A stretch of DNA of 64,000 nt from Torpedo marmorata (Eukaryota): the NCBI GenBank assembly GCA_977017645.1, contig OZ360231.1, positions 8,184,001 through 8,248,000 of the forward strand, written 5' to 3'. Position 1 is the first letter of the stretch. Each line of letters begins with the position of its first letter. Below the pieces are notes generated by a model, which saw only the letters and a program-made list of their open reading frames with translations, made no database searches and was not told where the DNA came from. Both the position numbers and the translations under genes were made by a program. Positions 24,864 to 49,584 of the stretch are shown here, in pieces.

Positions 24864-24879
24864 ATCGCTATTGATAAGT

Positions 24880-25440
24880 TTTCCTCTGTTCTTGAATCAG
24901 AGGAGTGGCCCTAAGGTGTTTGAACAATGCTGGAGAATCCACACCATGGTTATCAACAACTTGCTGGACCTCCTGTGCTCCTTGCACCCACCATCTGCTC
25001 TTTGGTTATGGTTTTCTGCTGACCCTTGGTCCACATCAGTATTTCTTTTCCTTTAAGCCATGGTGGAGCTTCCAATTTAAAATTGGCTTGTTTTGGCACT
25101 TGGATCTACTTTCATTCTCATTAAATTAGTTCTGGTCTTTTCTGGTAAAAAAAAAACCAAGAGTCTCTTCACAGGTGCCAACTATTCCAGACAGTCCAGA
25201 CATTGAAATTTCTTCAGCTGCTGTTGGTTGGGGAATCATCAGTTTGCATGTGAGGCGCTCTCTGAGTAGAATTATCCTCGTGCGCACCTTGAGAACCTCC
25301 ACACTGATTTTCTAGTGCAGTGTTTCTGCCAGCAAACTGTAATAACCCATCCCAGTGGTGTGAACATTCAGGCATGAGTGGGAGTGCTGTTGCATGCCTG
25401 TTCACCCAATGCTGTTGTCATAACCCATCTTGCAACCCAG
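24880..25440 (-). mobile_element. Possible highly decayed RTE-clade LINE fragment
   Basis: Minus strand reads RWWVQGAQEVQQVVDNH, resembling an RTE-like WW.EKAQEIQQLAD.H segment recalled from memory. Frames are interrupted by stops. Confidence 0.3.
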
Positions 25441-25889
25441 ACTGGCTGACTGATAAGAAAATGTCACTCAGCTAAAGTGCACGGGTGAGATGTTCTCAGA
25501 GCTGGGTGGTACAGAGAGGACTGGTGGGGTTAGGCAGGAGAACAAGCCGTGAGAAGGGAAGGGGCAAGGATTATTGGTGCAGGGCAGGGGAAGGATTGTC
25601 AGTGAAGGGGCAAGGATTGTTGGTGAAGGGAAAAGGGAGAGGGTGGAGTGGAAGGGTACCAAAAGTATGCACTCATTTACGCATGTATCAGGCTAGGTAG
25701 GAAAAGAGTGTCACATAATTTCTCTCTCTTCTGCCATTAGATTGTTGTTAAATTGTATCACATCTCAACCCACCCACCTTCACTCTGCAGTCCTCAATGG
25801 CTTTACTTAACTACCGGTATATTTCAATCTGAGGTTTGAAATTCTGTCCTAGTTTCAACAGCTTTGCTGATTTGTGGTTTTAAGCTTAC

Positions 25890-26148
25890 CCAGTCAACTC
25901 TTTGCTTCCTTTTTGAGTTATTAAGGGTGATGCTTTAACAAATGGAGTTGTTTCTTCCTCCTTCAAAATTGCTTTTGTCTCTTCCATTTCTTCTGACAAT
26001 TCTTGTTCGGGTTTCAAATCGGATTCTTTTCTTTCTCTCTTGATGAAAGATATTGCTGATTTGCTGCTCCTCAAATCGGTATCGTTAAAATGAATGATTT
26101 TATCGTTTATTCGGCTTTCCATTTCATTTGTGATGCTTAGTATTCTAC
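25890..26148 (-). CDS. SETDB2: SETDB2 coding exon G (259 nt, phase 1-2): GRILSITNEM...KGSKELTG, start of the SET insertion
   Basis: Lies inside ORF 25886..26188. GRILS matches human GRLLS. Acceptor tacttttag, donor gtaagc. Confidence 0.9.
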
Positions 26149-26759
26149 CTAAAAGTAAAACCACATTGAAAACAATATACTCACACATTTTAGCAAAATT
26201 CTATTACAAGTACAATATCTAAATTTGAACAAAATATATCATCCATAATTATTCAACTAGAAAAGGCACCAAGAGATACAGCACTAATTCATGTGATCAC
26301 ACTGCTTCCAGGGCCAGTTCTACATATGCACCAAACAAACTAATAATGAAAATGAAGTTCAATATTGGACGTCAGCACAGAAAGGTAAAGAGAAAAAGAT
26401 TATCTTTCTTCATCAACCATTTAAATGCATTTTGCATAAAGGTAAAGAATGGACTGAAGTCAGCTTTAATGCCACTATTTATTTTTATAAATGTTCTGGT
26501 GATAAAATGGCCATTTCTTTTAATTCACAGATTGAAATGTGGGCATTGCTGGCTTTCACTGACCTTGTTGTCATTTGATAGAATTGACATGGGATATAGA
26601 CCATACAAATCAAAAGGGTTTATCCAAAGTCTTTTCAGTATTATGGATTTTCGGGCAGTACTTTTAAAATTCAAATTTAAGGAAGAATAAAGAAGAGATG
26701 AACAGGTAAATTTTGATAGTTTATTCATTAGCAAATACAGCATGCTTCATTTATCAAAA

Positions 26760-26938
26760 AGAGCAGTTTTAAAGAAAAATAAAGTCAACAAGTGTGGTCG
26801 TTTGTGCCGCTGTGCATTTGTAGCACTTACGCATGCACGCACACAAAAGTCCGCTAAATTTAAAAATTTTGAGTTTTGGAAATGTTTGGATTCTTGGGTG
26901 GTCTGGATTTCTGGCATCGGATTTTTGGATTTCTACTG
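26760..26938. mobile_element. Possible right end of an old Tc1/mariner MITE
   Basis: Ends ...ggatttctactg|ta, like the TIR at 56893-56913. Left end not found. Confidence 0.35.
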
Positions 26939-27624
26939 TACCTTGCTTACTCTGGAGGAAGTGTCATGTCCTATCCTTCAACGGAATGCAAGGACTGACA
27001 TAAGGATGTAATTGCAGGTGCAAATATGCAATAGCCAGATGTCTGACAGAGAAAAAAAACTTCTCTCCAAATGGTTGGGAACAGATAGAAGGAAGAACTC
27101 TTACCTGGCAGATTTCAAAGCAAATTTTATATTACTTTGAGAAGATATTAAAAAAAAAACGTAAAACTTACATGTCCACGAAAATATTCATTTTTATATC
27201 CTTAAGGTTTATACAGGATAGAAATAAAACTAAATTCACAAACTATTTCATTAAAATAATCAATAATTAAATCCTGAATGAGAGTTTGGAGTTCCATTCA
27301 TTCAGGTTTTAATTATTGAAATGAGGTTCTTTGGTCATGCAATTAAAAATTCATGCTTGAATAGACTAGTTCTAACATGTTGTATTTAGTCGCTATCTAG
27401 CAAGGTAACAATTTGCAGCTCCGTGTTTGTCATGTATCTGATTGCCAAAATCTCCAGGAAGGTTGATAGTTTAGTTTTGAATTCTATGGAGGATCTGTCA
27501 GTAATTTTCTGACCATTGCTTTTTTGCATGTGTAGTTCCAGAAATTGCTGTTGAATTTATCCCATAATAATTATATTCATGTACAAACTTGACATTAATT
27601 TAACTGGGTAAAAATCCATGCAAA

Positions 27625-28000
27625 CACTTCAGAGGAATATTAAAGTTGTGTCACATTGTTGGAGGTGCCACCATTCATTTGAGGTACTAAACTGATGCTT
27701 TGAGCGGACCAAATAATATCTCATGGCACTAATCTGAACATGAGCAAGGGAATTTTCCCAATGTCAGAATCAGGTTTATTGTCTTGAATGTGTCACAAAA
27801 TTTGTTGTTTTGCGGCAGCTGTATTGTGCATTACAGGTGCAAAATTGGTATAAATTACAGTTCTATAAATACAATATTTAAAAATAAATAATTAGTGCAA
27901 AAAAAGAAAAAAAGTGTTAGTATCTATAGGTATATGTCCTGGTTAATATTTTTGCATTAACTGACTTCACTAAAAAAATCTCCAGGCATTGATCTCCATG
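27625..28000 (+). mobile_element. DeuSINE-like remnant interrupted by a Rex1/Babar 3' tail (about 27766-27933, minus)
   Basis: ttggaggtgccacc...atctcatggcacta...atgtc, then agaatcaggtttattgtc...ttttgcggcagc, then atgtcctggttaatattt. Confidence 0.5.
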
Positions 28001-28477
28001 CTTTTGTGGAACCCTACTGTCCAAATTGGCTTCCACCTTTGCTTTATTGTTACATTCGCCGCATTTCATTTGCTGTTATATATTTTGTTACATTCTGAGT
28101 TTTGGAAAGGCATTAAAGGCCTTCTTTCAATTCATCATGAAGAAACATTGAAAAAATAATTCAATTTTTAGCAAAAATATAATTACAGATCAAATCTACA
28201 TGCAATTGTAAATACATGGATTTTATTTCAGCCTACGCTTTTATACAAGTTACATATCTTTCAGAATACTATAATGTGACAATTAATAACAAATACCATC
28301 AGTATAATATTTCTGGCAATGTGGAACATGTAAACAAACTGCAATGCTTGAAATTGAAAATATATTGAAAATAATCACATTATGAAGCATTTGCAAACAT
28401 TGTGTCAGTAACTTTATATAAAAAGTAACTCAAATCAACATCTTGATATACAGTACAGTATTTAATGGACATCATAC

Positions 28478-28647
28478 CTGCATAACAACACACAAAAGTT
28501 CCTTTATCAACATCATCCATACAACGCACTCCCCAGCCTTTTTTGTGTGTTTTAAACAATTGCAGTTGAATTCTAAGACCCTGTTGTACAACTCTGTTTT
28601 CACAAGATCTTTTGTTGCATTTGCACCATGTGTTACATTCGTAAACC
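28478..28647 (-). CDS. SETDB2: SETDB2 coding exon F (170 nt, phase 2-1): VYECNTWCKCNKRSCENRVVQQGLRIQLQLFKTHKKGWGVRCMDDVDKGTFVCCYA
   Basis: End of pre-SET plus SET-N with the GWG motif. Acceptor tctttttcag, donor gtatga. Confidence 0.96.
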
Positions 28648-28817
28648 CTGAAAAAGATTTGCTGTTAAAAATATCTCACTCAACAATTATTTCCAGTTGG
28701 CAACTAACATTGTGAGGCAGATACTCAATGCTGTCACTGGCATCACTTGATCTAAGCCCATGGACTTGATTCATGTTTCAATGCAATCTGCATATTGAAT
28801 ACAACAATGTGGTAAAA

Positions 28818-31800
28818 GCTCTAATTTGATAATAAGCAAAAAGTGTATTATCTAATATATTAAATTTATCTTTCATTCTTTGAAAAGTAATAAATTTCCC
28901 AGCTTCAAAACAATCATTTATTTTCTTAATTCCTTTTTGAAACCAAATTTTAAATAATTGATTATCAATAGTAAATGGAATAAGTCCATTTTGATATAAA
29001 GGCATCCTTGAAGAAATCAATCCTTTTCCTCCTATTTCCTTATCCGTCTTATTCCATATTTCTAACAAATGTTTAAGAATAGGAGAATTTTTCTTTCATG
29101 TTGATATTAATTTAGAATCCCATTTATAAATAACTTCTTCTTTGGAATCTTCTATATTATTTAATTCTATTTTAATCCAAGCAGAAGATTTAGTTGAATC
29201 AAAAAATTCATTAACAAATTTTAATTGAGCTGCTTTATAATAATTTTGGAAATTAGGAAGTTGTAAACCCACCCATTTCATAATTCCAAGTTAATTTTTC
29301 CATACCTACTCTTTCTAACTGTCCTTTCCATAAAAATTTTCTAATAATTGAATTTAAATCTTTAAAAAATTTTTGAGGAATTTCATAAGGAATTGATTGA
29401 AAAAGATATTGAATTCTTGGAAAAACATTCATTTTAATACAATTTATTCTTCCCATTAAAGTTATAGGTAAATCTTTCCAATTTTCTAAATTCTTTTTTA
29501 TTTTCACAAATAATGGTAAATAATTTAATTTATATAAATTAGCCAATTTTGTGTCAATCCTTATTCCCAAATATTTAATTCCTTCCTTTGCCCATTTAAA
29601 TTGTATAATTTCTTTACATCTACTATAATCCCCTTGTGATAATGCCATAATTTCACTTTTATCAGAATTAATTTTATATCCAGATGTTTCCCCATATTCT
29701 CTCAATAACGCAGACAATTGTACTAAAGATGTAGTGGATTTTGTCATATATATCATTCTTCCATTCCAACTTTAATACCAACTATTTTAGGATAAATTTA
29801 ATATATTAGATAATACACTTTTTGCTTATTATCAAATTAGAGCTTTTCTGATTTTTAAAAAAATATTTTATTTAAAAATTTTAAATCACACAATACACAG
29901 TTTAAAACGCAAATTTCTCAAATTACATGTGATACATTTTCACCCCCCCCCTCCCTAACCCTCCCGAAAAGAAAGAAAGAAGAAGAAAAGGATAGAGTAA
30001 GGAGAATGTCAATCTAAAAAGAACAACTATAAACTGATCTTATTGTGGAGGATAGGCTCGCCAGCCAGAACCGATGTCCAGAGATCTTCAAATCCTTAAA
30101 CCCACAATTTTTATATATGGGCTCCATACTTCCAAAAATAAATGATACTTATCACGTAAATTATATGTAATTTTTTCAAGTGGTATACATGAACGCAATT
30201 CTGCGTGCCATCTTTCCAACCCTAAGTCTACATCCGACTTCCATGTAGTGGCAATACATTTCTTAGAAACGGCTAAAGCAATACGTAAAAATTCTGTCTG
30301 GTACATATTTAATTTCCCTTTAACACTGGTTCCTTCAATATCTCCAAACAAGAATATCATAGGATCCATTGGAAGTGTAGTTCCTAATACTTTATCTAAA
30401 AAATTTTTAACTTTCAACCAAAAATCATAAACTTTTGGACAAAACCATGTAGAATGTACAAAAGAACCTTCCTCTTTATTACATCTAAAACATAAACCAG
30501 ATAATGTCGGATTAAATTTCTTTAATTTTTTAGGTGTTAAATATAGTTGATGAAAAAAATTATATTGCACCAATCTATATCTAACATTAATAATCTTCGT
30601 CATACTTTGTTTACATAATTTTTTCCAATGCTCTTCATCTATTGTTACATTCAAATCTTTTTCCCAATTTAATCTTGATTTATGAATTCCTGTTTTAGGA
30701 AGTTTCCTCTGTAGCAATCTGTACATTTGAGAAATAAATTTAGGCACACCTCCATTAGTAACTAATAATTTCAATTCAGTCTGTCTTGGTAAGGTCAAAC
30801 CGCGGCCCAACCTTTCCCCTAAAAACGCCCTAATTTGATAATAAGCAAAGATTGTATTATTTGCTACACTAAATTTATCTTTCATTCTCTGAAATGTAAT
30901 AAATTTACCAGCTTCAAAACAATCATTTATTTCCTTAATTCCCTTTTGGTACCAAATTTTATATAGTTGATTATCGACAGTAAATGGAATAAGTTCATTT
31001 TGATATAGAGGCATTCTTCGAGAAATTGATCCTTTCGCTCCTATTTCTCTATCCACTCTATTCCATATTTCTAACAAGTGCCTAAAAATAGGAGAATTTT
31101 TCCCTCTTGTTAATAATAATTTAGAATTCCATTTATAAATGACTTCTTCTTTCAAATCCTCTCCTATATTATTTAATTCTATTCTCATCCAAGCAGAGAG
31201 CTTCCCTAAATCAAACAATTCGTTAATAAATTTTAGTTGGGTTGCTTTATAATAATATTGAAAATTAGGAAGCTTTAGACCACCCATTTCGTAGTTCCAG
31301 GTTAATTTCTCCAATCCTACTCTCGCCAACTTTCCTTTCCACAAAAATGTCCTAATAATTAAATTTAAATCCTTAAAAAACTTCTGAGGGATTTCATAAG
31401 GAATTGATTGAAAAAGATACTGAATTCTCGGAAAAACTTTCATTTTAATACAATTTACCCTTCCCATTAAAGTTATAGGCAAATCCTTCCATCTCTCCAA
31501 ATCCTTTTTTATATTCACAAATAGTGGTAAATAATTTAATTTATACAAATTGGATAATTTTGTATCAATCTTTATTCCCAAATATTTAATTCCTCCCTTT
31601 GCCCATTTAAATTGTGTAATTTCTTTACAATCGCTATAGTCCCCTTGTGTTAAAGGCATAATTTCACTTTTATCCGAGTTAATCTTGTAACCAGATATTC
31701 CCCCAAATTCTTTCAATAAAACAGACAATTGTGTTAGAGAATTAATAGGTTTTGTCATATATATCAATACGTCATCTGCAAACAAACGAATTTTGTGTTC

Positions 31801-34630
31801 TTCCTTACCAACTTTAATACCTGCAATCTTACTATCTTGTCTAATTAATTCGGCTAAAGGTTCTATTGCTAAAATAAACAATGCTGGCGATAAAGGACAA
31901 CCTTGTCTAGTAGACCTGGTTAAGGAAAATTTTGAAGATATTTGACCATTTGTGACCACTCTAGCAGACGGTTCTTTATATATAGTTTTAATCCAATTAA
32001 TAAATGTACTTCCAAAACCAACTTTTTCCAGTACCTTAAATAAATAATTCCACTCTAATCTATCAAAAGCCTTTTCGGCATCTAATGTTAATACTAATGA
32101 CAGTTCTTCTCTTTTTTGTGCCACGTTTATTAGACTAATTAATCTAGCGATATTATCTTTTGAATATCTGTTTCTAATAAAGCCTGCCTGATCTACATGG
32201 ACTAAGTCTGGTAAGAACTTAGCCACTCTGTTTGCTAAAATTTTCGCCATTATTTTATAGTCCACATTTAACAACGATATTGGTCTATATGATTCTGTTC
32301 TCAACAAGTCTCTATCTTTTTTCGGTATAACTGTTATTAATGCATTGGTGAAGGATTCTGGTAGAGAATGGGTTTCCGTTATTTGTTTTAATACCTCCAT
32401 ATAAGGAGGAATCAATAAGTCCTTAAATTTCTTATAAAACTCTGATGGGAAACCATCCTCCCCCGGAGATTTCCCACTTGTCAAAGAACTAAGAACCCCA
32501 TCGACTTCCCTCATCGTAAATGGTGAATCTAAAGATTCTTTACTAAGTGTATCTAACCTGGGCATGTTAATTTTGGATAAAAATTTGTTAATTTTAGAAT
32601 CATCTTTATCGGCTTGAGATGTATATAAATTCAAATAAAAATCTTTGAAAGAATCATTTATTTCTCGTGGTTTATAAGTTATTTTCTTAGAATTCTTTTT
32701 TATAGCCGTTATAGTTCTAGAGGTTTGTTCCTTCTTTAATTGCCAGGCTAAAACTTTATGAGCTCTTTCTCCCAGTTCATAATACCTTTGCTTAGTCCTT
32801 TCAATGAGTTTTTCCAATTTATATATTTGTAACGTATTATAATATAACTTTTTCCCAATTAAATCTTTCTTCTTTTCTTCTGATCTCTTTTTTTGTAGAT
32901 CCTTCTCCAAAAATTCAATCTCCTTCTCCAAATTATCCAATTCCTGAATATTTTCCTTCTTAACTTTTGCTGAATAACTTATTATCTGACCTCTTAAATA
33001 ATCTTTCAAAGCATCCCAAATAATAAATTTATTTTCCATGGAATCCGCGTTAATCTGTAAAAATTCTTGGATTTCTCTTCTTATATATTTACAAAAATCC
33101 ACTCTCTTTAGTAAAGAAGAGTTAAACCTCCATTTATATATAATTTTTTCTTTTTCTGGAATTATGCACGACATTAATAAAGGCGAGTGGTCAGAAATTA
33201 ATCTAGCCTTATATTGTACTTGAGTCACCCTATCCTGTAATTGTGATGACAGCAAAAACATGTCTATTCTAGAATAAGAATCATGTCTAGAGGAATAAAA
33301 GGAGTAATCTTTTTCTCTCGGATTCAACTTCCTCCAAATATCAATTAGATTCAGGTCTTCCATCATCGTTAGAATTCTCTTAGCAGTTTTAGTTCTAATA
33401 ATTGATTTGGATGTTTTATCCATTACTGGGTCCAGACAACAATTAAAATCTCCACCAATTAAAATATTATTTGTATGCCTCTGACAGATGCATAAAAGAA
33501 TCTTGAATAAATTGATCATCTTGCGTATTCGGCACATATATATTCATAAGAGTCCACATTTCTGAGTATATCTGACAGTTTATTAAGACGTATCTTCCTG
33601 ACCCATCAGTAACCACTAGAGCTTTTCTGATTGAGAAATTAGGTTATGCTTTGATTTTACCAAGACAGAATGAATTAGAATTATTAGTTACTAAAGGAGA
33701 TGTAAACAAATTTATTTCTCAAATGTTTCAGAGGAAAATTCCTAAAGTAGGAATTCATAAATCAAGATTAAAATTGGAATTAGATTTGAACGTAACAATA
33801 GATGAAAATTATTGGAAAGAATTATGTAAATTAAGTATGACGAAGATTATTAATGTTAGATATAGATTAGTACAATACAATTTTTTTCATCAATTATATT
33901 TAACACCTAAAAAATTAAAGAAATTTAACCCGACATTATCAGGTTTATGTTTCAGATGTAATAAAGAGGAAGGTTCTTTTGTACATTCTACATGGTTTTG
34001 TCCAAAAGTCTATGATTTTTGGTTCAAAGTTAAAAATTTTTTAGATAAAGTATTTAAGATTATATTTCCGATGGATCCTATGATATTTTTGTTTGGAGAT
34101 ATTAAAAAATTTAGTATTAAGATGAAATTAAATATGTATCAAATAGAATTTTTGCGAATTGCTTTAGCTGTTTCAAAGAAATGCATTGCTATTACTTGGA
34201 AATCTGATGTTGATTTTTAGGGTTAGAAAGATGGCATGCAGAACTTCGTTCATGTATACCACTTGAAAAAATTACTTATAACTTACGGAATAAATATCAT
34301 TTCTTTTTAAAAATATGGAGCCCTTATATGAAAGCTGTTGGCTTAAGGATTTGAAGATCTCTGGACATTGGATCTACTGGCTACCTAACCTCCATAATAG
34401 AATTAGTTTATAGATGTATTTATTAGATTGACATTCTCCTTACCTTATCTTTTTCTTTTCTATTTCTTTTTTTAAAATTATTATTTTATTAGATTAGTGG
34501 GGTTGGGAGGGTTGGGGAGGGGAGGGTGGGTGAAAATGTATCACAAGTATTTTTGATAATTTTATATTTTATTCTATGTATTTTGTGATTTAAAATTTTA
34601 AATAAAATATTTTTTTAAAAAACAAGAAAA
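28818..34630 (+). mobile_element. L1/Tx1-clade LINE with 5' inversion (28818-29790 inverted; 29791-29853 and 33633-34630 forward)
   Basis: 15-bp TSD aacaatgtggtaaaa (28803-28817, 34631-34645). ORF pieces are minus at 28778-29756 and plus at 33651-34220. Confidence 0.88.
29854..33616 (-). mobile_element. L1/Tx1-clade LINE nested in the previous element; near-intact ORF2
   Basis: 1149-aa ORF 30088..33537 (GGDFN, SRID, SDHSP endonuclease; RT FADD; CCHC). 16-bp TSD tagagcttttctgatt (29838-29853, 33617-33632). Confidence 0.96.
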
Positions 34631-35118
34631 AACAATGTGGTAAAAAAAATATCAGAATAATAACTGGTGGTAATTTATTGTGAATCATTTTGTATTTGTT
34701 TTACTTTAAAGTAGTGACTAAAGTATGCAGCATTTCAGAAGTTTTCCTAAATATTGCACTGCAAACTCCTCCATGTGTCATTGAATCATGCTACTTTTAA
34801 AATTGGATCTACAAATCCTGCATTCAAACCAAACGGAAACAGCATAGTAGTAGTAAATACGCAAACATGCTGGAGAAACTCAGTCATGTATTTACTACAA
34901 TCACAGCATCTGCAGACTTTCTTGTTTCACAGCATAGTAGTAGTGTTATAGTTCAAGTGGATCTGTAGAGGACACAACTAAAATTTGCATCCAATGTAAA
35001 TCCAATCCAAGATACACTTGTATCTGAAAACAGTATGATAGATGTGCCTTGCATTCAAGAGCATGTAGGAAGAGGATTTAACTATCCTTTTAAAGAGATT
35101 AACTTTATCTTAACTCAC

Positions 35119-35220
35119 CCGGAAGGTGCACATTGCAGAAGTCGTTTGCATTCGTACCCAGCAGCCTTGCTAAATCTTTTGTTGACTTTGGCTGTTAGCT
35201 GTTGACATGCACACCTAGAT
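35119..35220 (-). CDS. SETDB2: SETDB2 coding exon E (102 nt, phase 2-2): SRCACQQLTAKVNKRFSKAAGYECKRLLQCAPSG
   Basis: Pre-SET CAC.QLTA...GY..KRL motif. Acceptor tttgtaag, donor gtgagt. Confidence 0.93.
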
Positions 35221-35896
35221 CTTACAAAGATACCACATCTTAATATATTAACACAAATTTAAACATCCATTTTAATTATGATAGTTGAAATCTTTCTTCT
35301 TTTCATGATGGAGGCAAATTCCTACAATGGACTCTATTAGAAACATGTACCATATACATCATGAATTCTTGCAGCACCTCCAGAAGGTAATCAACATTGT
35401 AAACTTATTACAGTTTTACTACAAAAGATACAGGAATAATTGCACATTCTGATAAGGAAATATATCATCTGATCTTTGTGGATTTATGCCACAGAAGGAA
35501 TTAAAGTAGCAGCCACAATTAAACAACACAAATTTATACATATCTTCTGGATTGGTACACGTCCAAAGATGCTTTCACTGTGTACAAGAAAACAAATGAG
35601 TGGTAAACCCAAGACAAGGTTTTGGGAAGGCAAGTGAAAGCTAGGTCACAGGCATGTTACAAACAGGACTTTAAAAAGGAGAGAGAAGGATTTCTGAAGA
35701 TCCAGTCCAAGAAGATATAACTGGCGCTGCCAACAGTGGGGTAATGAGAGTGGGAAATGCAGAAGGATTCCAATACATTGGAGGATTGGAACAGTTAGAA
35801 CTCGATAAAATGGTCATCACATTTGAAGTTAGTCTGTGCTGAGTTAATATATTTCATATGGGATACAATAATATTTCCAGAAAGATACACATCAAT

Positions 35897-35936
35897 GTAT
35901 GAGATATATATATATATTATTATATATGATATATAC

Positions 35937-35992
<56 letters not shown>
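35897..35992. repeat. Compound (TA)n(TG)n microsatellite
   Basis: Direct reading. Confidence 0.95.
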
Positions 35993-36270
35993 CGCAAGAT
36001 ATTAGATATAGATATTATGAAAGATTGTTTCACAGATTGTCAGTACATGTAACATTGAACAAGCTCTGGAAGTACCACTGGGTTTAGGCCCCACTCATTT
36101 GACAATATACTGCAGAGCTAAAGGAGTGCAGTACTAACATGTTAAACACGTTTAGATCGCTATAAAATATTTTAAGACAGTATTTGTAGGGAAGTAGGCT
36201 TATATTCTGGCCAATATTTAACCCTTGAGGAACATGCATTAAAATGATCGACCATTCCTTTCCTTAACAA

Positions 36271-36515
36271 GGGCGCACGGTTAGCGTAGCGGTTAGCACA
36301 ACGCTGTTACAGTGCCAGCGACCAGGGTTCGAATCCGGCGTTGTCTGTAAGGAGTTTGTATGTTCTCCCCATGTCTGCGTGGGTTTCCTCCGGGCACTGC
36401 AGTTTCCTCCCACCGTTCAAAACGTACCGGAGGATGTAGGTTAATTGGATGTAATTGGGCGGCACGGGCTCGTGGGCCGAAAGGGCCCGTTACCGTGCTG
36501 TATGTCTAAATTAAA
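36271..36515 (+). mobile_element. tRNA-derived V-SINE (HE1-like) with CR1-type tail
   Basis: A-box-like tagcgtagcgg, B box ggttcgaatcc, V-domain-like gttctccccatgtctgcgtgggtttcctccggg, tail gggccgaaagggcc...gtgctgta. Confidence 0.88.
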
Positions 36516-36885
36516 GAAAAATTCAGATATGTACAACATAAGAATACTGAATAAATATACCCCATTCTCTGGCTAAATTAGAAGCATTTAAAAAAAAAAA
36601 TCTTTAAAAAGCTGTATAAACAACGTTAATACGTGATGGAAATAAAGTGATGAAAAGTTAACTCTATTTCACTTTCCACAGATGATGCGCAACCAGATGA
36701 GTGCTTCCAGCATCCACAATATTTTGCCTTTGCATAAATAAATTGATGCTTTAATGTCCATTCATTAATTCTAAATGCGATTTTTGGCTGTAAAATTTGG
36801 AGTTCAGAAGCAATCCTACACAGAGAAACTCGTAATTTTTGAAGATCAAGGGAATTACCAAAATAAATCATGAAATTATACTAAC

Positions 36886-37488
36886 TTGTTACTGCAACCA
36901 TCTGTGCAGCTGCATTTCCCTTGGAACATCTCTGCTGAATTGCTAATAAGGTATCCATGAGGCAAACGAACTTTTCTGTATTTAAAGTGCTCTGGGGTAG
37001 AAGTGTCAATTACATTATGCAGAGGAATTGGAGCAGGTTCTATGCCACAGCTTATGTCAGCTTTGTAAACAATTGGGTTCTTGCAAGGAAATGTTCTTGA
37101 AAGCTGAACGTATGTATTGAAAGAGAAAAAATCCAATGAAAGGAAGTCACACTGGGTTTGAAAAAGGTAATCGCGCACCTCCTTGAAATTCCGCAAACTT
37201 CTCCCACAAGGAGCTTTGTATGATACATGTGGAGGATCCATAACCTCAGTATCCCAGTGCAATTTTGCATGTCTTCTTTGAAACTGGCAGAGTATGGGAA
37301 TTTTCAGTGGATTTTCCCCTTTGAAATGATCAGAGGTTGGAGGCATTACTCCTGCAATGCACATTCTACTGCACTTGTGCTGATGAAATATGAATTGATC
37401 AGGATAGTTTGCATGATTGAACTCCTTTGAAGGAGATGCGCAGGTGGTGGAGGGTGCCAATCTTTTAATAACTGATGTACCGGTATGT
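36886..37488 (-). CDS. SETDB2: SETDB2 coding exon D (603 nt, phase 2-2): MBD and start of pre-SET
   Basis: ORF 36876..37460: KGENPLKIPILCQFQRRHAK, HVSYKAPCGRSLRN, FSFNTYVQL, CSCTDGC. Acceptor ccttttcag, donor gttagt. Confidence 0.95.
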
Positions 37489-38459
37489 CTGAAAAGGCAA
37501 AAGAAAATATTTACTTAATATTCTATCACACTTGTACACAACCATGTTTCCCTCTGCCAACATTAGAACTTGCTGGTACATGATCAGCACAGTGCTTAGT
37601 GCACTCAGTTTGAACAGCTAGATATTCAAGCAATGGTTAAAAATAACTCTTTAAACACATACCAGATTCTGGTAAGTGATATGAAGCACCAGCTTGAACA
37701 GATTGCAACAGGACCCATTCACATAAATTTTAAATGTTAAAGGATAGTTCAATGAAATCACTACTTAGACTCCCAAATTCCAAACTTGCTCAATCTTTCC
37801 TCATCCCAGAAACAAGCTAGTGATGGGGGAGAGGGCTGAGGGTAGCTCTCTGATAGAAGGAAGGGAAGGGTTGCCTATCTGTTTACTAATTTAATTCAAT
37901 TAGTTTACTATCATAGTTTTTGTTTACAAGTACCTGTTCAGCTGCAGCAAATAAGAATTTCAGTGGATATGTACATTGTACAATGTGTATGCCAATAAAC
38001 TCATCATTATCATCGAATGTATCCTTGCACTATCTCCAAGTACATTCTTTCTTGGGTGGAGATAAAAGTTAGACATAGAACTCCACACTGGTTTCAAATT
38101 CCATACAATCACAGAAAATCTTTATTCTATTCGTACTCCAACAACTTGCAATAAAGGCAACACACCATTTGTTTTCCTTACTGCTTGTTGTGCCTTGCCA
38201 AACTCAGAGCAAAGAGGTTGAGATGTGCAAGATCATGACTGGTTCAGACATGGTAAATAGAGGGAAGCTGTTCCCATTACAAAAGATCAAGGAACAGGGG
38301 CCACATATTTCATGATTTAGAATTCATTGACTGGAAGGATAGTGGAAACAGATTCACTCAGGACTTTCATGAAGGAATTCAATACACACTGAAGAGAAAA
38401 TAATGAACAGGACAAAGGAGAATGGGATAATCAAGACACCATCAAAGACTCATTGGGCT

Positions 38460-41400
38460 AAATCAACAGCAAATATTACAGGCCATTTCAAGATTAGAAG
38501 TTAATATGCAGCAAGAATTTAAAGAGGTGAAGCAAAATATTAGGAGATTGGAAAATACTGTGAGTAAAATGGAAAATAGAGTTCAAAAAGTTGAAGATGA
38601 TATTAAGAATAATTATGATGAATTCGTGGACTGTAGAGAAAGAGTTGATAAATTAGATGATTCATTTATAGGATGGGAATTACAAAGAAATCAATTGATG
38701 CAAAAAATGGATCAATTGGAAAATCAAAGCCGAAGAAATAATGTTAAAATACTGGGATTGCCTGAAGATACTGAAACACAAGATGTAACTTAATTTTTTC
38801 AAAATTGGCTTATGCAAACTTTTGCTTTTGACAAACCAGTGGAGCTGGAAAGAGCACATAGAATTGGGAGATGAAATCAGATAGATCGAAGACCATGTCC
38901 TGTGTTGATGAAATGTCTTAGATATCAGGATAGAGAAAAAATATTAAGAGCAGCGATTCAGAAGGCGAGAGACAACAGAGCTCCAATGATGATTGGTGAA
39001 ATAAAGTGCTTTTTTATCCAGATTTAAGTCCAGCGGTAGTTAAGAGTCGCAAAGAATTTAATCCAACAAAAGCATTACTCTGGCAGAAAGGATATAAATT
39101 TTCGTTTAAATATCCTGCGGCTTTGAGAGTTCAAAGTAATGGAAATGAGTTCATTCTGTTTATGGATCCTCAACAAGCTTATAAACATGCACAAACTCTT
39201 CCATATTTGATTAAAAAATCTGGAGTGAATAATCGTCAGCAAGATCAAGAAAATCAATTAATGCAAGTTTCTTCACCAAATTCTTTGCCAAGAGAGGAGA
39301 GGATTCTAGTTCAGACTGAAGAAGAACAAGATGATTTGGACATTGGATCAGTTAATTGAAGATATGATGTATAAGTTTACGTTAATCTGTTGGGGGGAGG
39401 TGGACTTTTTGTCTCTTTTTCCTAGCCATACACCACCTTAGTGGCGAGAGCCACTTCTCAAACAATGGAGGGGGGTAATACTGGGACAAAAACACCAGTA
39501 TTTTATACGCGGGGATTTTCTTTTTTTTCTTTCTATCTTTTACTTTATTTGAGCGGATACCATGTAGTTTACAATTTAGGAGGGAAAAGCTAGTAGATTT
39601 GATTGAAAGAGATTTGCTACAATTTAATTATGATGGATAGTAGGAGTATAAATTTAGTAAGTATTAATATAAATGGGCTTAATAATCCGATTAAGAGAAA
39701 AAGAACTTTAGCATATATTAAAAAGTTGAAGGTAGATATAGCATTTTTACAAGAGACTCATTTGATAGACTTGGAATATCAAAAATTAAAAAGAGAGTGG
39801 GTTGGTCATGTGGTGGCTTCTTCATTTAATTCTAAAGCAAGAGGGGTAGCTATATTAATTAATAAAAAATTACCTTTTAAGATACAATTGGTAGTTACAG
39901 GAAGATATGTTTTGATACATTGTCAAATTTATTCAGAATCTTGGACACTTATGAATTTATATGTGTCAAATCCAGATGATGAGCAGTTTATTCAAGATGC
40001 CTTTTTACACTTGTCAGATGCTAATGAGAATATTTTAATTGGGGGAGATTTTAATTGTTGTTTAGATTCAATAATGGACAAGACTTCAAGATCACCTGTT
40101 AGAGCTAAAATTGTTAAAATAATTCTTAATTTGATGAAAGATTTAAATTTAATAGATATTTGGAGGAGATTGAATCCTAGGGAGAAAGATTATTCATTTT
40201 ATTCTTTTAGACATGATTCATACTCTAGGATAGACTTATTTCTATTATCTTCACAGGTTCAAGATAGAATAACACAAGCATCCTATAAAGCGAGAGTAAT
40301 CTCTGATCATTCGCCTTTATTATTGTCTTGTATAATTCTGGAAAAAGAAAAAACTATATATAATTGGAGATTTGATTCGTCTTTATTAAAAAGGAAAGAT
40401 TTTTGTGAATACATAAGAAGAGAAATGCAGGAATTTTTGTGAATAAATGCTAATTCTATTAATGATAAATATATTGTGTGGGAAGCTTTAAAAGCTTATT
40501 TAAGGGGTTTAATAATAAGCTATTCAGTTAAAATTAAGAAAGATTATCTTAAGGAATCAGAAAAACTTGAGAAGGAAATTGAACTTATGGAAAAGGATTT
40601 ACAGAGAAATAGATCAATTCAAAAAAGAAATCATTTAATAGGGAAGAAATTATATTATAATTTGTTACAAACATATAAAATGGAAAAATTAATTGAGAAA
40701 ACTAAACAAAGATATTATGAATTGGGGGAAAGAGCCCATAAGGTTTTGGCATGGCAATTGAAAAAAGAACAAGTTTCTAAAACTATAAATGCTATAAGGA
40801 AGAAAAATACTGGAGAAATAACTTATAAACCTCATGAGATAAATGAATCTTTTAAAGATTATTATCAGAATTTATATAAATCGCAGATTGACCAAGATGA
40901 TTCTAAAATTAATAGATTCCTATCCAAAATTACATTACCTAAATTGAACATTCAGAGTAGAGATTCTTTAGATCTGCCTTTTACAATGAGGGAAGTTAGT
41001 GAAGTTTTTTCTTCGCTGAAGAGTGGTAAATCTGCGGGTGATGATGGGTTTACATCAGAATTTTATAAAGAATTTAAAGATTTATTAATACCTCCATATA
41101 TGGAAGTACTAGATCAAATTACGGAAACTCATTTATTACCGAAAACATTTTTAAATGCTATAATTACAGTTATACCAAAGAAGGATAGGGATGTATTAAA
41201 AACTGAATCATATAGACCTATTTCATTATTAAATGTAGACTATAAAATAATGGCGAAAATTTTAGAAAACAGAATGGCTAAATATTTGCCAGATTTGATA
41301 CATCTAGATCAAGCTGGTTTTATTAAAAATAGATATTCAAAAGATAATATAGCTAGATTAATTAGTTTAATTAGTTTGCATAAAAAGAAACAAGATCTAC

Positions 41401-43669
41401 CATTAGTTGTAACATTAGACGTTGAAAAGGCTTTTAATAGATTAGAATGGGATTTTTTATTTAAGGCATTAGAAAAATTTGGTTTTGGAAATACATTTAT
41501 AAATTGGATTAAAACTATATATAAAGAACCATCAGATAAAGTAATTACAAATGGACAAATATCGCCAAAATTTCTTTAACATGCTCTACGAGACAGGGAT
41601 GTCCTCTGTCACCAGCCTTATTTGTTTTGGCGATAGAACCTTTGGCTGAATTAGTTAGAAAAGATCCTAAGATAGTGGGTATTAAAGTTGGTATGGAAGA
41701 ACATAAGATTAGTTTGTTTGCAGATGATGTATTGATATATATGACAAAATCTATTATATCACTTCAACAACTATCTATCATATTAAGAGAATATGGTGAA
41801 GTATCTGGATATAAAATTAATTCTGATAAAAGTGAAATTATGGCTTTATCTCAAGGTGATTATACTAGATGTAAAGAAATTACACAATTTAAATGGGCTA
41901 AAGAAGGAATTAAATATTTGGGAGTTAAGGTTGATACAAAATTGGAAAATTTATATAAATTAAACTATTTATCATTATTTGTGAAAATAAAGAAAGATTT
42001 AGAGAATTGGAAAGATTTACCCATAACTTTAATGGGAAGAGTAAATTGTATTAAAATGAATATATTTCCAAGAATTCAGTATCTTTTTCAATCAATTCCT
42101 TTTGGAATTCCTCAAAATTTTTTAAAAGATTTAAATTTTATTATTAGGAAATTTTTATGGAAAGGAAAGTTAGCAAGAGTAAGTATGGAAAAGTTAACTT
42201 GGAATTATGAGATGGGTGGATTGCAACTTCCTAATTTTCAAAATTATTATAAAGCAGCTCAATTAAAATTTGTTAATGAATTTTTTGATTCAACTAAATC
42301 TTCTGCTTGGATTAAAATAGAATTAAATAATATAGGAGAAGATTTTAAAGAAGAAATTATTTATAAATGGGATTCTAAATTAATATCAGTAAAAAAAGAA
42401 AAATTCACCAATTATTAAACATTTGTTAGAAATATGGGGTAAGACGGATAAAGAAATAGGTGGAAAAGGATTGATTTCTTCAAATACGCCATTATATCAA
42501 AATGGACTTATATCATTTACTGTTAATAATCAGTTACTTAAAATTTGGTTTCAAAAAGGTATTAAGAAGATTAGTGATTGTTTTGAAGCTGGAAAATTTA
42601 TTATGTTTCAAAGAATGAAAGATAAATTTAATATATCAGATAATACATTTTTAGCTTATTATCAAGTTAAAGCTTTTTTGACTGAGAAATTAGGTTATGC
42701 CTTGATTCTACCGAGACAAAATGAGTTATTTATTAGTTACTAACGGAGATGTCAATAAATTCATTTCTCAAATGTATAAATTGTTTCAGAGGAAAATGCC
42801 TAAAATAGGATTGCATAAATCAAGATTAAAATGGGAATTAGTTTTAAATGTAAATATAGACAAAAATCATTGGAAAGATTTATGTAAATTAAGTATGACG
42901 AAGATTATCAATGTTAGATATAGACTAGTACAATATAATTTTTTTCATCAATTATACTTAACACCTAAAAAACTAAAGAAATTTAATCCGATATTATCAG
43001 GCTTATGTTTTAGATGTAATAGAGAGGAAGGTTCTTTTGTTCATTCTACATGGTTTTGTCCAAAAATTCAAGATTTTTGGTTGAAAGTTAAAAAATTTTA
43101 GATAAAGTATTTAAGATTATATTTCCAATGGATCCTATGTTATTTTTATTTGGAGATATTAAAAAATTTAGTATTAAGAAGAAATTAAGTATGTATCAAG
43201 TAGAATTTTTGCGAATTGCTTTAGCTGTTTCAAAAAAATGCATTGCTATTACTTGGAAATCTGATTTAGATTTAGGATTAGAAAGATGGCATGCAGAACT
43301 TCGTTTGTGTATACCACTTGAAAAAATTACTTATAATTTACGTAACAAATATCATTTTTTCTTGAAAATTTGGAGCCCATATATGAGAGCCGTGGGTTTA
43401 AGGATTTGAAGATCTCTAGATATCGGATCTGCTGGCATATTTGACCTCCATAATAGAATTAGTTTAGAAGGTATTCCCCTTATTCTATTCTTTTCTTTCT
43501 TTCTTTTTTTCTATTTTACTTTAATTTTTTTATTAGATTAGTGGGGATGGGGGGGGTTGGGGAGGGGAGGGAGGGTGGGGGGGTGAAAATGTATCACATG
43601 TATTTTGATAATTTTATATCTTATCTCATGTATTTTGTGATTTAAAAATTTAAATAAAATAACTTAAAA
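38460..43669 (+). mobile_element. Near full-length L1/Tx1-clade LINE (ORF1 partial, ORF2 broken by stops and frameshifts), inserted in an old CR1 tail
   Basis: ORF1 LENQSRRNNVKILGLPE and FYPDLS. ORF2 NINGL, LQETH, GGDFN, SDHSP, LFADD, CFRC. 16-bp TSD aaagactcattgggct (38444-38459, 43670-43685). Confidence 0.95.
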
Positions 43670-44805
43670 AAAGACTCATTGGGCTGAATGTGTATATGAT
43701 TCTATGATTTTACCTGATGGCTTGGGTTTTGTTTGAACATCCATCTAAATACTGAGTATCATGTTATTTTCATCAATGTATGTACATTTTTAAAATTAGT
43801 TGTGACTACATGCACAGTTAAACCATACATCGTATTATTTTATTAATTTTTAATTTAGGGTTTTAAATTGGCTGTTATTTTATCTCCTTTTTTTCCCAGT
43901 TGTAGCTTTAAAAGTTAAAATGTTTTGCTCTTATCAACTATGGGACAATGAGGATTTAAATTTTGCATAAAAGAGTTAGCAACCTTTTTGTGTCAATTTT
44001 AGGTGTGTTGAGAAATAGAACAAAAATAACAAAGGGAACATGGAGGCCATTCATTCTGATTAATATCAGCCATGATTCAGTTGTATCAGGCTAAACTCAG
44101 CCTCTGAAATTTATGGTTCAAATTCCACTGCAGAGATTATTTTTGTCAATACTAAATAAATTACTACGCATGTTGGCAGAGATCATCCTTTCTTTGCCAA
44201 GAATAAACTTTGCTATCTGACTTTCACTCCAGAAACATAGCATCATCATTCTCCTCTTTGTTTGAATCTTACTAATGTGTATTCATCCCAATGCCAAAAA
44301 TGTAGTGATTAAGAAAATTTAGTGATTTGATGGTGTTTGCCTGACCTATATTCACAAACTACTAGTTTGCAATATTCGTTCATTAAATCACTATGTAAAG
44401 TTGCCTCCATTATAACAATTAAGACTAGATAGTCTGAAAGTACCAGATTATAAATTTAAATTATCTGAAGGATAACTCCATTTTAGCAGATTGACATAAC
44501 ATATCAATCTAACACAATAGCCACAGTGATTTGGGCAGCTACTGGTTGAATTACAGAAAATGTTAAAAAAAAATGTAAAGGTTAAAGTGTAAAAGAGATT
44601 TTAAAAAGTACACACAATTTTGGTTGACTTCACTTCAATTCACCCCAATTACTCCAAGTTATGCAGACAAACAAAAGTCTCAGAAGAAGATCAGGATAAG
44701 ATGATGACTTAATTTTGAACAATATCACAGTACATTTGAACAATTGTTAACAAAGTTACACAACTTTAACTCACAAAGATGAAGCCTTGAATACTGCATA
44801 CTCAC

Positions 44806-44905
44806 AAAAACAGGGAATTGTCTGTTGCTGATTCTCTTTCTATTTCTTCAGAAATCATCTTTTCTGAAATCTCTTCACAGTCAAACTGAAACCTTTCTTC
44901 ATTTT
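44806..44905 (-). CDS. SETDB2: SETDB2 coding exon C (100 nt, phase 1-2): (E)NEERFQFDCEEISEKMISEEIERESATDNSLF
   Basis: Acceptor attatag, donor gtgagt, open frame. It supplies the phase 1 to 2 change needed between exons B and D. Sequence conservation is low. Confidence 0.78.
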
Positions 44906-45159
44906 CTATAATTTGGGATACAAACCCCAAAAAATAAAATGTGTTTAGTTAAAGAATTACGGAAGCTTCTTTTAGTTTCACAGCTAGATAACGTACTGAA
45001 ATGGGTAGTATTAATTGGGCCAACTTGGTGGATGATCGGGAGGGGGAAGGGGGTTGGTTTGCAGGGAAAGAATATATCTATGCATGTGTATACACACAGC
45101 GAGGTTATTAACCTTGGCAGAATTACAGCACTTTTAATCAAAAGGATATGGAATTGAGG

Positions 45160-45300
45160 CTGACACCAGTACAGTACTGAATAAATTTAGCACTTTTGAA
45201 GGTATTGCCTTTTAGATGTGACATTAAAATGAGAACCCCATTCTCCCTCAGCCTCTTGTAAAAATAAAATCCCATAGTGGAAGGTAGATTACTTGCATCT
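45160..45300 (+). mobile_element. DeuSINE-like remnant
   Basis: cagtacagtactga...gccttttagatgtgacattaaa resembles the Deu domain (from memory). Confidence 0.4.
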
Positions 45301-45312
45301 AGCTAATAATAA

Positions 45313-45648
45313 AGGCAGCACAGCAACAAAGTTAGCAGAGCTGATACCTCACAGGTCCAGAGTTCAATCCTGATCTCGGGTGCTGTCTGTGCATAGTTTG
45401 CACATTCTCCCTGTGACTGCACGGGTTTCCTCTGAATGCTCGAGTGTCCTCCCACCTCCCAAAGACTTGGCTTGATGGGTTAAGTAGCTGCAGTAAATTG
45501 CCCAAGCATATGTGTGTGATAGAACCTGAGGGTAGTTGATAAAATGTGGGAGCATTAAAAAATTGGGATTAGTGCAAGATAAGTGTAAATAGATGCTTCT
45601 TGTTCAGTGTGGTTTGAAGGGTTGCTTCTGTGCTGCATCTATGACTCC
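45313..45648 (+). mobile_element. Older V-SINE
   Basis: gagttcaatcc B box, gtttgcacattctccctgtgactgcacgggtttcctc V domain, CR1-like tail. Confidence 0.75.
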
Positions 45649-46042
45649 ATTACGCCGTCAATCATAATCATTGTAAAGACAAATTATTTAGTTATATACC
45701 CTACTGTTGTACGTGCAACCTACTACAAACAAATTTGCTACCATATATTCTGTATTACAACACTGACAACACACCAAAATAGACATAAGAGTAGCCTGAA
45801 AATAAAATTTAGCCGATTGGCTTGAATGGTGAAAAATGCTCCTTAGATGTTATGCTTTCATTTTTTAGATACCTACCATTTTTGAAGATATAAAGGATGA
45901 GGTTACTTAGTAGAAGACAAGCATCAAGGGACTAGAGATCTAAACAAATGTCTTCTATTCTTTACATACGGTGATGCTGAGATTTTACTGCTGCCTTAAC
46001 TTAAATTCAAGGAAATAAAGAGTTTTAATGTTTTGCCTCTAC

Positions 46043-46114
46043 CTGCTGTGTCAGGTGAAATCGAATTCTTGTAGATTCCAGCTTTGTTGACCAAATTTAA
46101 AGCCTTCAAATATT
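46043..46114 (-). CDS. SETDB2: SETDB2 coding exon B (72 nt, phase 1-1): (E)YLKALNLVNKAGIYKNSISPDTA
   Basis: Acceptor ttttctctttctgcag, donor gtagag. Similar to human EYIQAMILVNEA. Too short for the ORF track. Confidence 0.88.
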
Positions 46115-47131
46115 CTGCAGAAAGAGAAAACTTAAACAACATAATGGATAGCTAGGCAGAAGAATCTATTCAATATTATTTGCATTACTGGATTATTTGT
46201 ACAACAAATTCCTATGTACGTTTTATAGTTAATTGAAATTGTTTCAGTTGATAGATCCACAATGTTTATATATCAGCAACCAATGGCTATTTATTAAGCT
46301 ACTTTAAACAAATATACATTTCACAAGAACAGAAATGACAAAATCTGAAACTCAATGAAATTATGATAATTGATTTTTAGTTGCTACGTTACAAAACTTG
46401 TGCTTAGATTCAAGACAAATTTACCCATGGTTTCAAGGTTTCCCAAACAAAATTATCCTTCAAAGTCCCCCTGCTGCACTTGTCACAAAGATATTTTAAT
46501 CTGGAAGACCTTCAGGAAATAACCAGTAACATCTCTTGTCAATTACCAGGAAATGCCACCCCTTCATTAATATTCTGACCACAAAGGCTTTTATTCACAT
46601 GCAACACTAGTAGAATACAAATTTCTAGAGTAAGATGAAATTATGCTTATCTCGTTGGATCCTGTTGAACAACAGTTAAATTGTTCAGGTTGAAATACAG
46701 AAAATAAATGCCATGCTAATCCCTTGACTGGCCCACCATTTATCCATTTTTCCCTTGCTGCCTCTACTACCCGCATGAAAAAACCACCCCATTTCCAACT
46801 TTATTATACAAAAACATTTCTCTTAACTTCATTCTCGACCTCATGGATTCAATGATGTGAAGACGTTTGGTGAAAAGACTTCTTGTTTGTCCTGTCAAAT
46901 AACCTTTAATTTCAATTAAATCTTCACAGTGGGAGATCATTTGACCTTTTGCATGTGCTCTGCCATTGAATAAGATCATGATTGATTGTTCACTTCACTT
47001 CATCAAATCCTTCAATTTCATCAATATCCAAAAATTTATCAATCCCTTGGCCTTTGCTGTATTAGTGGGCATAATTCCAATAATTTTTCAATCCTCATAA
47101 TTTTAGTTTCTTATCAATGACATCATTCCAA

Positions 47132-49584
47132 AATGTAGATTACAAGATAATGGCAAAAATTTTAGCAAATAGGATGGCTAATTATTTACCAGATTTAATT
47201 CATGTAGACCAAGCTGGTTTTATTAAGAATAGATATTCAAAAGATAATATAGCTAGATTAATTAGCTTAATTAATTTACAAAAAAAGAAAGAAGATTTAC
47301 CATTAGTATTAACGTTAGATGCCGAAAAGGCTTTTGATAGACTAGAGTGGAATTTTTTATTTAAGGTGTTGGAGAAATTTGGTTTTGGAATTACGTTTAT
47401 TAATTGGATTAAAACTATATATAAAGAACCATCTGCCAAAGTGGTTACAAATGGACAGATTTCTTCAAGATTTCCTTTGACTCGATCTACTAGACAAGGA
47501 TGTCCTTTGTTACCAGCGTTATTTATTTTGGCGATAGAACCTCTGGCAGAATTAGTTAGAAAAGATCCTAAAATAGTTGGTATTAAAGTTGGAATGGAGG
47601 AACATAAAATTAGTTTATTTGCAAACGATGTATTGATATATATGATAAAATCTACTACATCTTTAGTACAATTATCTGCGTTATTGAGAGAATATGGGGA
47701 AATATCTGGATATAAAATTAATTCTGATAAAAGTGAAATTATGGCATTATCACAAGGGGATTATAGTAAGTGTAAAGAAATTACACAATTTAAATGGGCA
47801 AAGGAAGGAATTAAGTATTTGGGAATAAGAATTGATACAAAATTGGCTAATTTATATAAATTAAATTATTTACCATTATTTGTGAAAATAAAAAAGGATT
47901 TAGAAAATTGGAAAGATACCTATAACTTTAATGGGAAGAGTAAATTGTATTAAAATGAATATTTTTCCAAGAATTCAATACCTTTTCCAATCAATTCCTT
48001 ATGAGATTCCTCAAAATTTTAAAAAAGATTTAAATTTAATTATTAGAAAATTTTTATGGAAAGGAAAGTTAGCATGAGTAGGTATGGAAAAATTAACTTG
48101 GAATTATGAAATGGGAGGTTTACAACTTCCTAATTTTCAAAATTATTATAAAGCAGCTCAATTGAAATTTGTTAATGAACTTTTTGATTCAACCAAATCT
48201 TCTGCTTGGATTAAAATAGAATTAAATAATATAGGAGAAGATTTTAAAGAAGTAGTTATTTATAAATGGGATTCTAAATTAATATCAATAAGAAAGAAAA
48301 ACTCTCCTATTCTTAAACATTTGTTGGAAATATGGAATAAGACGGATAAGGAAATAGGAGGAAAAGGAATGATTTCTTCAAGGATGCCTTTATATCAAAA
48401 TCATCTTATTCCATTTACTATTAATAATCAATTATTTAAAATTTGGTTTCAAAAAGGAATTAAGAAAATAAATGATTGTTTTGAAGCTGGGAAATTTATT
48501 ACTTTCCAAAGAATGAAAGATAAATTTAATATATTAGATAATACACTTTTTTCTTATTATCAAATTAGAGCTTTTCTGATTGAGAAATTAGGTTATGCTT
48601 AGATCTTACCAGGACAGAACGAATTAGAATTATTACTTACTAAAGGAGATGTAAACAAATTTATTTCTCAAATGTATAAATTGTTTCAGAGGAAAATCCC
48701 TAAAGTAGGAATTCATAAATCAAGATTAAAATGGGAATTAGATTTGAACGTAACAATAGATGAAAATCATTGGAAAGAATTATGTAAATTAAGTATGACG
48801 AAGATTATTAATGTTAGATATAGATTAGTACAATACAATTTTTTTCATCAATTATATTTAACACCTAAAAAATTAAAGAAATTTAACCCGACATTATCAG
48901 ATTTATGTTTCAGATGTAATAAAGAGGAAGGTTCTTTTGTACATTCTACATAGTTTTGTCCAAAAGTCTACGATTTTTGGTTGAAAGTTAAAAATTTTTT
49001 AGATAAAGTATTTAAGATTATATTCCCGATAGATCCTATGATATTTTTGTTTGGAGATATTAAAAAATTTAGTATTAAGATGAAATTAAATATGTATCAA
49101 ATAGAATTTTTGCGAATTGTTTTAGCTGTTTCAAAGAAATGCATTGCTATTACTTGGAAATCTGATGTTGATTTAGGGTTAGAAAGATGGCATGCAGAAC
49201 TTCGTTCATGTATACCACTTGAAAAAATTACTTATAATTTACGGGATAAATACCATTTCTTTTTAAAAATATGGAGCCCATATATGAAAGCTGTCGGTTT
49301 AAGGATTTGAAAATCTCTGGACAATGGATCTACTGGCTACCCGACCTCCATAATAGAATTAGTTTATAGATGTATTTATTAGATTGACATTCTCCTTATC
49401 TTATCTTTTTCTTTTCTATTTCTTCCTTTTTTTTATTATTTTATTAGATTAGTGGGGTTGGGAGGGTTGGGGAGGGGAGGGTGGGAGGGGGGGGTTGAAA
49501 ATGTATCACAAGTATTTTGATAATTTTATATTTTATTCTATGTATTTTGTGATTTAAAATTTTAAATAAAATATTTTTTTTAAA
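47132..49584 (+). mobile_element. L1/Tx1-clade LINE, 5'-truncated at the RT start
   Basis: ORFs 47117..49310. The catalytic motif reads FAND. TSD aat(g/t)acatcattccaa (47116-47131, 49585-49600). Confidence 0.93.

Follow-up and report, generated by a model that had tools for sequence, protein, structure and literature searches.

An in-frame six-base insertion in a SETDB2 exon of Torpedo marmorata as a probable excision footprint of a Passer-like transposon

Six bases in a coding exon of SETDB2 in Torpedo marmorata are, very probably, the excision footprint of a Passer-like pogo transposon that had entered a TA dinucleotide of the exon. They add two residues to the protein, are missing from every informative cartilaginous-fish protein that we aligned, and spell the outermost bases of a transposon family found elsewhere in the same genome. 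We describe the insertion and its distribution among relatives, the class of genomic motifs to which it belongs, and the candidate source family, and then weigh other explanations.

Six derived bases in a SETDB2 coding exon

The window, a stretch of 64,000 nucleotides, holds much of SETDB2 on its minus strand (Table 1), and tblastn places further 5' exons of the gene outside it. Translation of the exon under study (37488..36886, 200 codons) gave 449 protein matches, the top 14 of which are SETDB2-type proteins of cartilaginous fishes, led by Narcine bancroftii SETDB2 at 93%. Pfam assigns an MBD at residues 84-128 and a Pre-SET match below the cut-off, and the order of the two, MBD then pre-SET, agrees with the best matches in identifying the gene as SETDB2. 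The DNA query matched the 6.2-Gb host genome once. On the minus strand the splice acceptor, ...ttttcag, is followed by A CAT ACC GGT ACA TCA; sequence, exon borders and protein matches all agree with the original prediction, made from the letters of the window, that TACCGGTA lies in frame within a SETDB2 exon, 3 nt past the acceptor. In run X2 (organism B; RNA by guess), contigs stop at 37488 and 36886, which are both borders of the exon, and the loose end at 37488 agrees by eye with the upstream exon at 29 of 30 letters, so that the six bases are present in spliced message of that run.

Table 1. Coordinates of features in the window
Feature	Position	Strand	Remarks
TACCGGTA, duplicated TA around CCGG	37478..37485	.	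net +6 nt, adds Thr-Gly, H-T-S to H-T-G-T-S
SETDB2 coding exon (603 nt, phase 2-2)	36886..37488	-	linker, MBD, start of pre-SET
Upstream coding exon	44806..44905	-	spliced to 37488 in run X2, junction codon TT|A; ends from sequence
SETDB2 coding-exon span in the window	7043..50258	-	tblastn with Narcine and Heptranchias proteins; ends approximate
TACCGGTA in L1 copy	62491..62498	.	93% paralogue at 32531-32834 with single TA, exact CCGGTA gap
TACCGGTA in intronic repeat	23114..23121	.	77% paralogue at 59360-59636, 6-nt gap, TA diverged
TACCGGTA, intronic, ~120 nt from exon	16934..16941	.	follows target rule; no paralogue
TACCGGTA, intronic, ~70-80 nt from exon	25812..25819	.	follows target rule; no paralogue
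Two TACCGGTA motifs 10 nt apart, ~1.5 kb beyond stop codon	5543..5560	.	each follows target rule

Of the 449 matching proteins, 16 were aligned at the site: 14 from cartilaginous fishes (13 species) and two from farther afield, which give no information there. A two-residue gap lies exactly at Thr-Gly in all 14 cartilaginous-fish proteins, from sharks, skates and rays, so the two codons, which distant relatives would share if they were ancestral, are missing throughout. The gap is followed by TSVIK in 13 of these proteins and by ASVIK in one, and preceded by Q (nine), R (three), H (one) or P (one). At the DNA level we compared the exon with four of 24 listed read runs, from organisms A, B, C and D. 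Within the 90-95% band, organisms C and D each lack just six letters, at 37477; written left-aligned, this is the same gap. The original prediction had proposed to search relatives for a gap of exactly 6 nt at this TA, and these two organisms have it. The six bases are retained in organism B (RNA by guess), which has at least one difference in the exon, and in organism A (run X1, ~1% diverged), where a single contig at depth 11.5 has one change within them, ACC to ACG, still encoding Thr, together with at least five differences in the exon and a 12-nt in-frame deletion.

Taken together, the gap in all 14 proteins, its exact 6-nt counterpart in C and D, and the retention in A and B indicate a derived insertion, gained where the ancestor had a single TA. 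It is common to at least two organisms with different names and postdates the divergence from Narcine. The synonymous change of organism A arose after the six bases had been gained and is no sign of an ancestral state. No empty allele was seen in the two nearest organisms, A and B, no transposon copy was seen at the site in the four runs, and a search at E 1e-60 found no short Logan-type relatives of the exon. Two other features of these contigs were recorded: the 12-nt deletion of run X1 covers window positions 37407-37418, in the same linker as the insertion, and one contig of organism C (run X3) has GATC added at a GATC site at 37234, an addition that would break the frame and resembles the junction artefacts of proximity ligation (DpnII-type).

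The inserted Thr-Gly forms residues 2-3 of the exon's translation, ~30 residues ahead of the part matched by the solved MBD-region chain of human SETDB2 (8HFP, exon residues 32-135). The original prediction had placed it in a poorly conserved linker, and this holds in part: the residue before the site varies and indels occur 10-20 residues on, but the well-kept TSVIK (13 of 14 proteins) directly abuts the insertion. Within the 20 residues after it, indels are tolerated in Hypanus, Hemiscyllium and organism A. The AlphaFold model of the Narcine protein is poor (mean pLDDT 35.8, with the SET region unfolded) and is thus uninformative on disorder at the site. The insertion is probably neutral; no result here indicates selection or a functional effect. 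As for the surroundings of the gene, PHD-finger (PHF11-like) exons flank SETDB2 on both sides (L085-L098), and database proteins fuse a PHF11-like PHD-finger part with SETDB2 in several sharks and rays, as a real fusion or an annotation merge.

A recurrent insertion with a flank rule

The same 8-mer recurs in the window, seven times against 0.26 expected from shuffles, and seven of the eight occurrences of ACCGGT are TA-flanked. All seven motifs follow a target rule of A at -3 and T at +3 (A at -3 on 14 of 14 sides), and the site in the SETDB2 exon, with flanks ATG|TGT, agrees with it. Both bases accompany 13.9% of the TAs in the window, which puts seven of seven by chance at ~1e-6. Paralogues point to insertion at two of the other sites (Table 1). 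In the L1 copy at 62491..62498 the motif adds Pro-Val in the ORF2 frame, and a second paralogue there, 78% alike, is ambiguous; four other queries from window motif sites returned no paralogue.

Genome-wide there are 83,690 copies of TACCGGTA, or 167,380 counted on both strands, vs 91,950 of TACCGGT with a different next base. The A(-3)/T(+3) context surrounds 36,489 of the 83,690 vs 2,981 of 47,251 copies of the reversed word, an unmatched control without CpG. We sampled 40 of the first 50 A..T sites, excluding five with one element-internal context, two already covered by other loci and the last three, and searched 674 kb of DNA for paralogues of the sampled sites. Thirteen of the 40 had paralogues, of which ten gave a modal 6-nt gap, three a modal gap of 4-5 nt in poor alignments (74-82%), and none was ungapped. 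Two of the ten (L134 and L148) share one L1 position and may not be independent, reflecting either a recurrent target or a copied scar. Among non-A..T sites, 17 of 20 had paralogues, all ungapped, and were native to two repeat families.

About half of the genome's TACCGGTA copies are native to repeats, a fixed motif inside a non-autonomous subfamily accounts for five of the first 50 A..T sites (three of the five were read), and a LINE-tail repeat also bears the motif, acquired by substitution. Since native repeat copies and a fixed internal motif exist, the 8-mer by itself proves nothing; it is non-diagnostic alone and, judged from these alignments, mostly diagnostic when joined to the flank rule. 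A rough count then gives ~30,000 such +6 scars in the genome. The doubled motif TACCGGTACCGGTA occurs only five times genome-wide, which gives no sign of repeated visits to one TA. A +5 form is also present: raw counts of its 7-mer are 21,376 in the A..T context and 65,214 in the opposite context. Paralogues were available for 25 of 40 sampled 7-mer sites; nine showed a modal 5-nt gap (one ambiguous), 15 no gap and one another result. These figures suggest, roughly, ~10,000 +5 scars vs ~30,000 +6 scars.

All seven target-rule motifs of the window (5543-62498) lie in or just beyond SETDB2, where 0.38 would be expected at the genome rate (P 1.5e-7, or ~0.015 allowing for ~97,000 windows of equal size). 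The surrounding 200 kb of flank holds one target-rule motif vs 1.2 expected, and the window holds no decayed motif with one mismatch. Spacing along contig C1 is mildly clumped, with four of 44 gaps below 10 kb vs 1.6 expected. We considered a general gene effect as the cause of the cluster and rejected it, as 197,670 bases around 60 helicase and UCH loci (housekeeping exons) contained no A..T motif vs 1.2 expected. Our best guess, which we hold as possible, is that the cluster is the trail of one locally hopping element. At window positions 28700-63700 the SETDB2 introns are also packed with L1-type copies, which lie in both orientations and are 85-96% alike; the copy at 30088-33543 has a 1151-aa open frame.

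A Passer-like family as candidate source

Using a degenerate end motif of CCGTA-ended pogo elements, we found 40,865 matches, vs 129 for the reversed pattern (an unmatched control without CpG). Matches are often paired in inverted orientation, 0.4-3.7 kb apart, and all 16 of the pairs that we retrieved, selected by length, start TA-CCGTAT and end ATACGG-TA. The inserted bases of the scar thus equal the ends of these elements, CCG...CGG, between two TAs, and such elements are present in the genome. Empty paralogous sites were available for five of 21 elements and showed a single TA, the commonest result, in four of the five, consistent with TA duplication on insertion; 37 of 42 element ends have A at -3.

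A transposase frame of at least 430 aa is found in five of the 16 pairs, and two of the 16 are non-autonomous, with a 27-nt tandem array. The 445-aa ORF of L071 matches the Pfam domains BrkDBD, HTH_Tnp_Tc5 and DDE_1 and carries the catalytic residues D177, D284 and D320, a DD35D triad. ORFs from 13 of the 16 copies are 1.1-5.6% apart (median 3.2%), a divergence of the same order as the ~1% between the window and organism A, and the family may have been active recently. By its ends, protein motifs, DD35D triad and target we call it Passer-like; at least two CCGTA-ended subfamilies exist in the genome.

Several members drew separate attention. The elements at L071:1497-2834, L067, L072 and L077 have intact-looking transposase frames of 440-445 aa, ~1-3% apart, and the Passer-like elements contain internal 32-nt and 54-nt tandem arrays that repeat the end motif. 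L078, L082, L032, L036, L040 and L048 are non-autonomous relatives with the 27-nt array, with a long stop-free frame in L078 and L082, and some of the non-autonomous relatives bear a fixed internal TACCGGTA, which may be an inherited scar.

Neither the window nor its 200 kb of flank contained a remnant of the family, and no site yielded a filled-versus-scar pair. As no element was seen at the SETDB2 site either, the proposed link between scar and family is one of sequence signature only. Tigger-type elements, which gave the top DDE_1 matches, were also tried as the source and set aside: their ends start with CA in five of the six loci that have a plausible element-length terminal repeat, and the copies compared are mostly 88-95% alike, hence older. 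Identical DDE_1 matches on several contigs may represent a multicopy segment or unresolved duplicates.

Three other accounts of the six bases deserve weight. An ordinary micro-insertion, by slippage or templated break repair, could have spelled the motif by chance; palindromic insertions can come from break repair, and no element was seen at the site. Yet the surrounding 1 kb has no other CCGG to act as a template, the insert does not repeat adjacent bases in tandem, and an identical insert recurs at unrelated sites that obey the element's target rule, so we rate such an origin as very improbable. We give marginally less credence still to the footprint of some other TA-targeting, CC-ended element outside the Passer-like family. 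Our search covered DDE_1-type elements, a set without the Tc1 and mariner families, and any of at least two CCGTA-ended subfamilies might be the exact source; against this, the ends, TA duplication, flank rule and age of the Passer-like family all fit, whereas Tigger-type ends mostly start with CA and their copies are older.

The least credible account, which we think has almost no chance of being right, is that the two codons are ancestral and were lost elsewhere, or that they are an artefact of assembly or alignment. The one synonymous difference of organism A within the six bases could be read in favour of age, but the account needs loss in 13 species of sharks, skates and rays, the closest named relative included, and contigs of two further organisms, each from a different study, contain the bases. 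Unless the orthologues compared share one annotation error, these comparisons refute it. The original prediction, that a transposon visit may have added two residues to this protein, is now joined by a matching family, a target-site rule and relatives without the six bases, and footprinting by a Passer-like element is the reading that we hold with high confidence.

Scar formation, reach and comparison with known systems

In the scheme that we favour, an element entered the exon at ATG-TA-TGT, three bases past the acceptor, and was later excised. A staggered cut would have left 3' CCG overhangs on both donor ends; pairing of the last two overhang bases (CG) with each other, followed by one-base fill-in on each side, would give TA-CCGG-TA, a +6 scar that stays in frame. 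Pairing of all three bases across a central C:C mismatch would instead give TA-CCG-TA, the rarer +5 scar that is also seen. Self-pairing CG overhangs would thus favour the frame-keeping scar. Alternatively, a 2-nt stagger with fill-in would produce the same 8-mer, as the Tc1 scar taCATGta suggests (PMC3520976). The filled allele was probably null or weak and carried in heterozygotes, and its effect could have been softened by SOS splicing, by which elements are spliced from mRNA (PMC12779559). The repaired allele, its frame kept, would then have spread, most likely as a neutral variant, before the lineages of the window, organism A and organism B separated.

A second host exon with such a scar was sought with an acceptor-anchored pattern, which matched 260 times. 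The 30 loci inspected included no convincing host exon; many were copies of one LINE-tail repeat that has the motif by substitution. The wider claim, that many proteins have been edited in this way, was thus looked for twice, by the acceptor pattern and in the 60 housekeeping-exon loci, and was not found in either. Among the helicase-domain matches, identical ones on nine small contigs (C164, C197, C310, C344, C464, C604, C1156, C1317 and C1710) may be a multicopy segment or unresolved duplicates.

The idea that departed transposons can leave extra amino acids in host proteins goes back to maize work of the 1980s, and the known cases are mainly plant alleles. It has been hard to test in vertebrates since scars are rarely recognisable; here the scar's fixed sequence and flank rule, together with a source family whose transposases look intact, make the idea countable. 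Assuming a coding share of 0.5%, ~30,000 scars would amount to ~150 coding hits before selection, a figure of arithmetic and not a result. We can picture Passer-type CCG ends, leaving mostly +6 scars, as a natural dipeptide mutagen, with tens of ray-lineage proteins carrying a fixed Thr-Gly, Pro-Val or Tyr-Arg, SETDB2 being the first found and the seven-scar cluster the trail of one local hopper; this is a tentative picture, and we would put its chances somewhat below even. The SETDB2 case itself is a clean example, natural and from a vertebrate, of a process already known, and its likely source has been identified. In the literature that we covered, which takes in few subscription papers, there is no report of this motif as a ray footprint, nor of a fixed footprint in a vertebrate protein.

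Excision of Tc1/mariner elements leaves 3' overhangs that are repaired by NHEJ, with footprints made of the first or last 2-4 bases of the element, as in the Sleeping Beauty footprints TACAGTA and TACTGTA (PMC6943129), and excision has been described as a source of small indels in rice and Arabidopsis (PMC4423477, PMC6668482). As in Tc1 (taCATGta, PMC3520976) and Sleeping Beauty (PMC6943129), the SETDB2 scar appears to hold an element's terminal bases between two TAs; the canonical Sleeping Beauty scar is +5 and frame-shifting (PMC6943129), whereas the ray's commoner scar appears to be +6.

The closest parallel for the source is Passer (PMC9976928, PMC7386202), which resembles the ray family in its TA duplication, Brk and HTH motifs, DD35D triad and transposase of 400-500 aa. 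Its short ends also start CCGTA, with a motif that ends TATAAG (compared by eye with a primer row, PMC9976928). For Passer, insertion is at the centre of AAGTACTT and footprints measure 0-4 bp (PMC9976928); the ray family likewise has an A..T target palindrome, and its inferred footprints are up to 4 bp. Passer's footprints come from plasmids in HeLa cells (PMC9976928); the ray elements differ in their internal 32-nt and 54-nt tandem arrays, and the gene bias reported for Passer (PMC9976928) is not seen for ray scars at the 60 housekeeping-exon loci. The supplement of the Passer paper has one Chondrichthyes row, for little skate, in which the ends are not given (PMC9976928).

For the coding scar itself, the nearest cases are in plants. 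Hd1a of Miscanthus has natural 6-bp MITE footprint alleles, also in a second species (PMC4493791), and the petunia allele PhDEF+6 carries a 6-bp footprint and is not fully functional (PMC10827313). Like SETDB2, both have a 6-bp coding footprint that adds two residues and restores the frame. They differ in that their elements are plant elements with a known filled allele, whereas the SETDB2 footprint is in a vertebrate, in at least two organisms, with the filled allele unseen in four runs.
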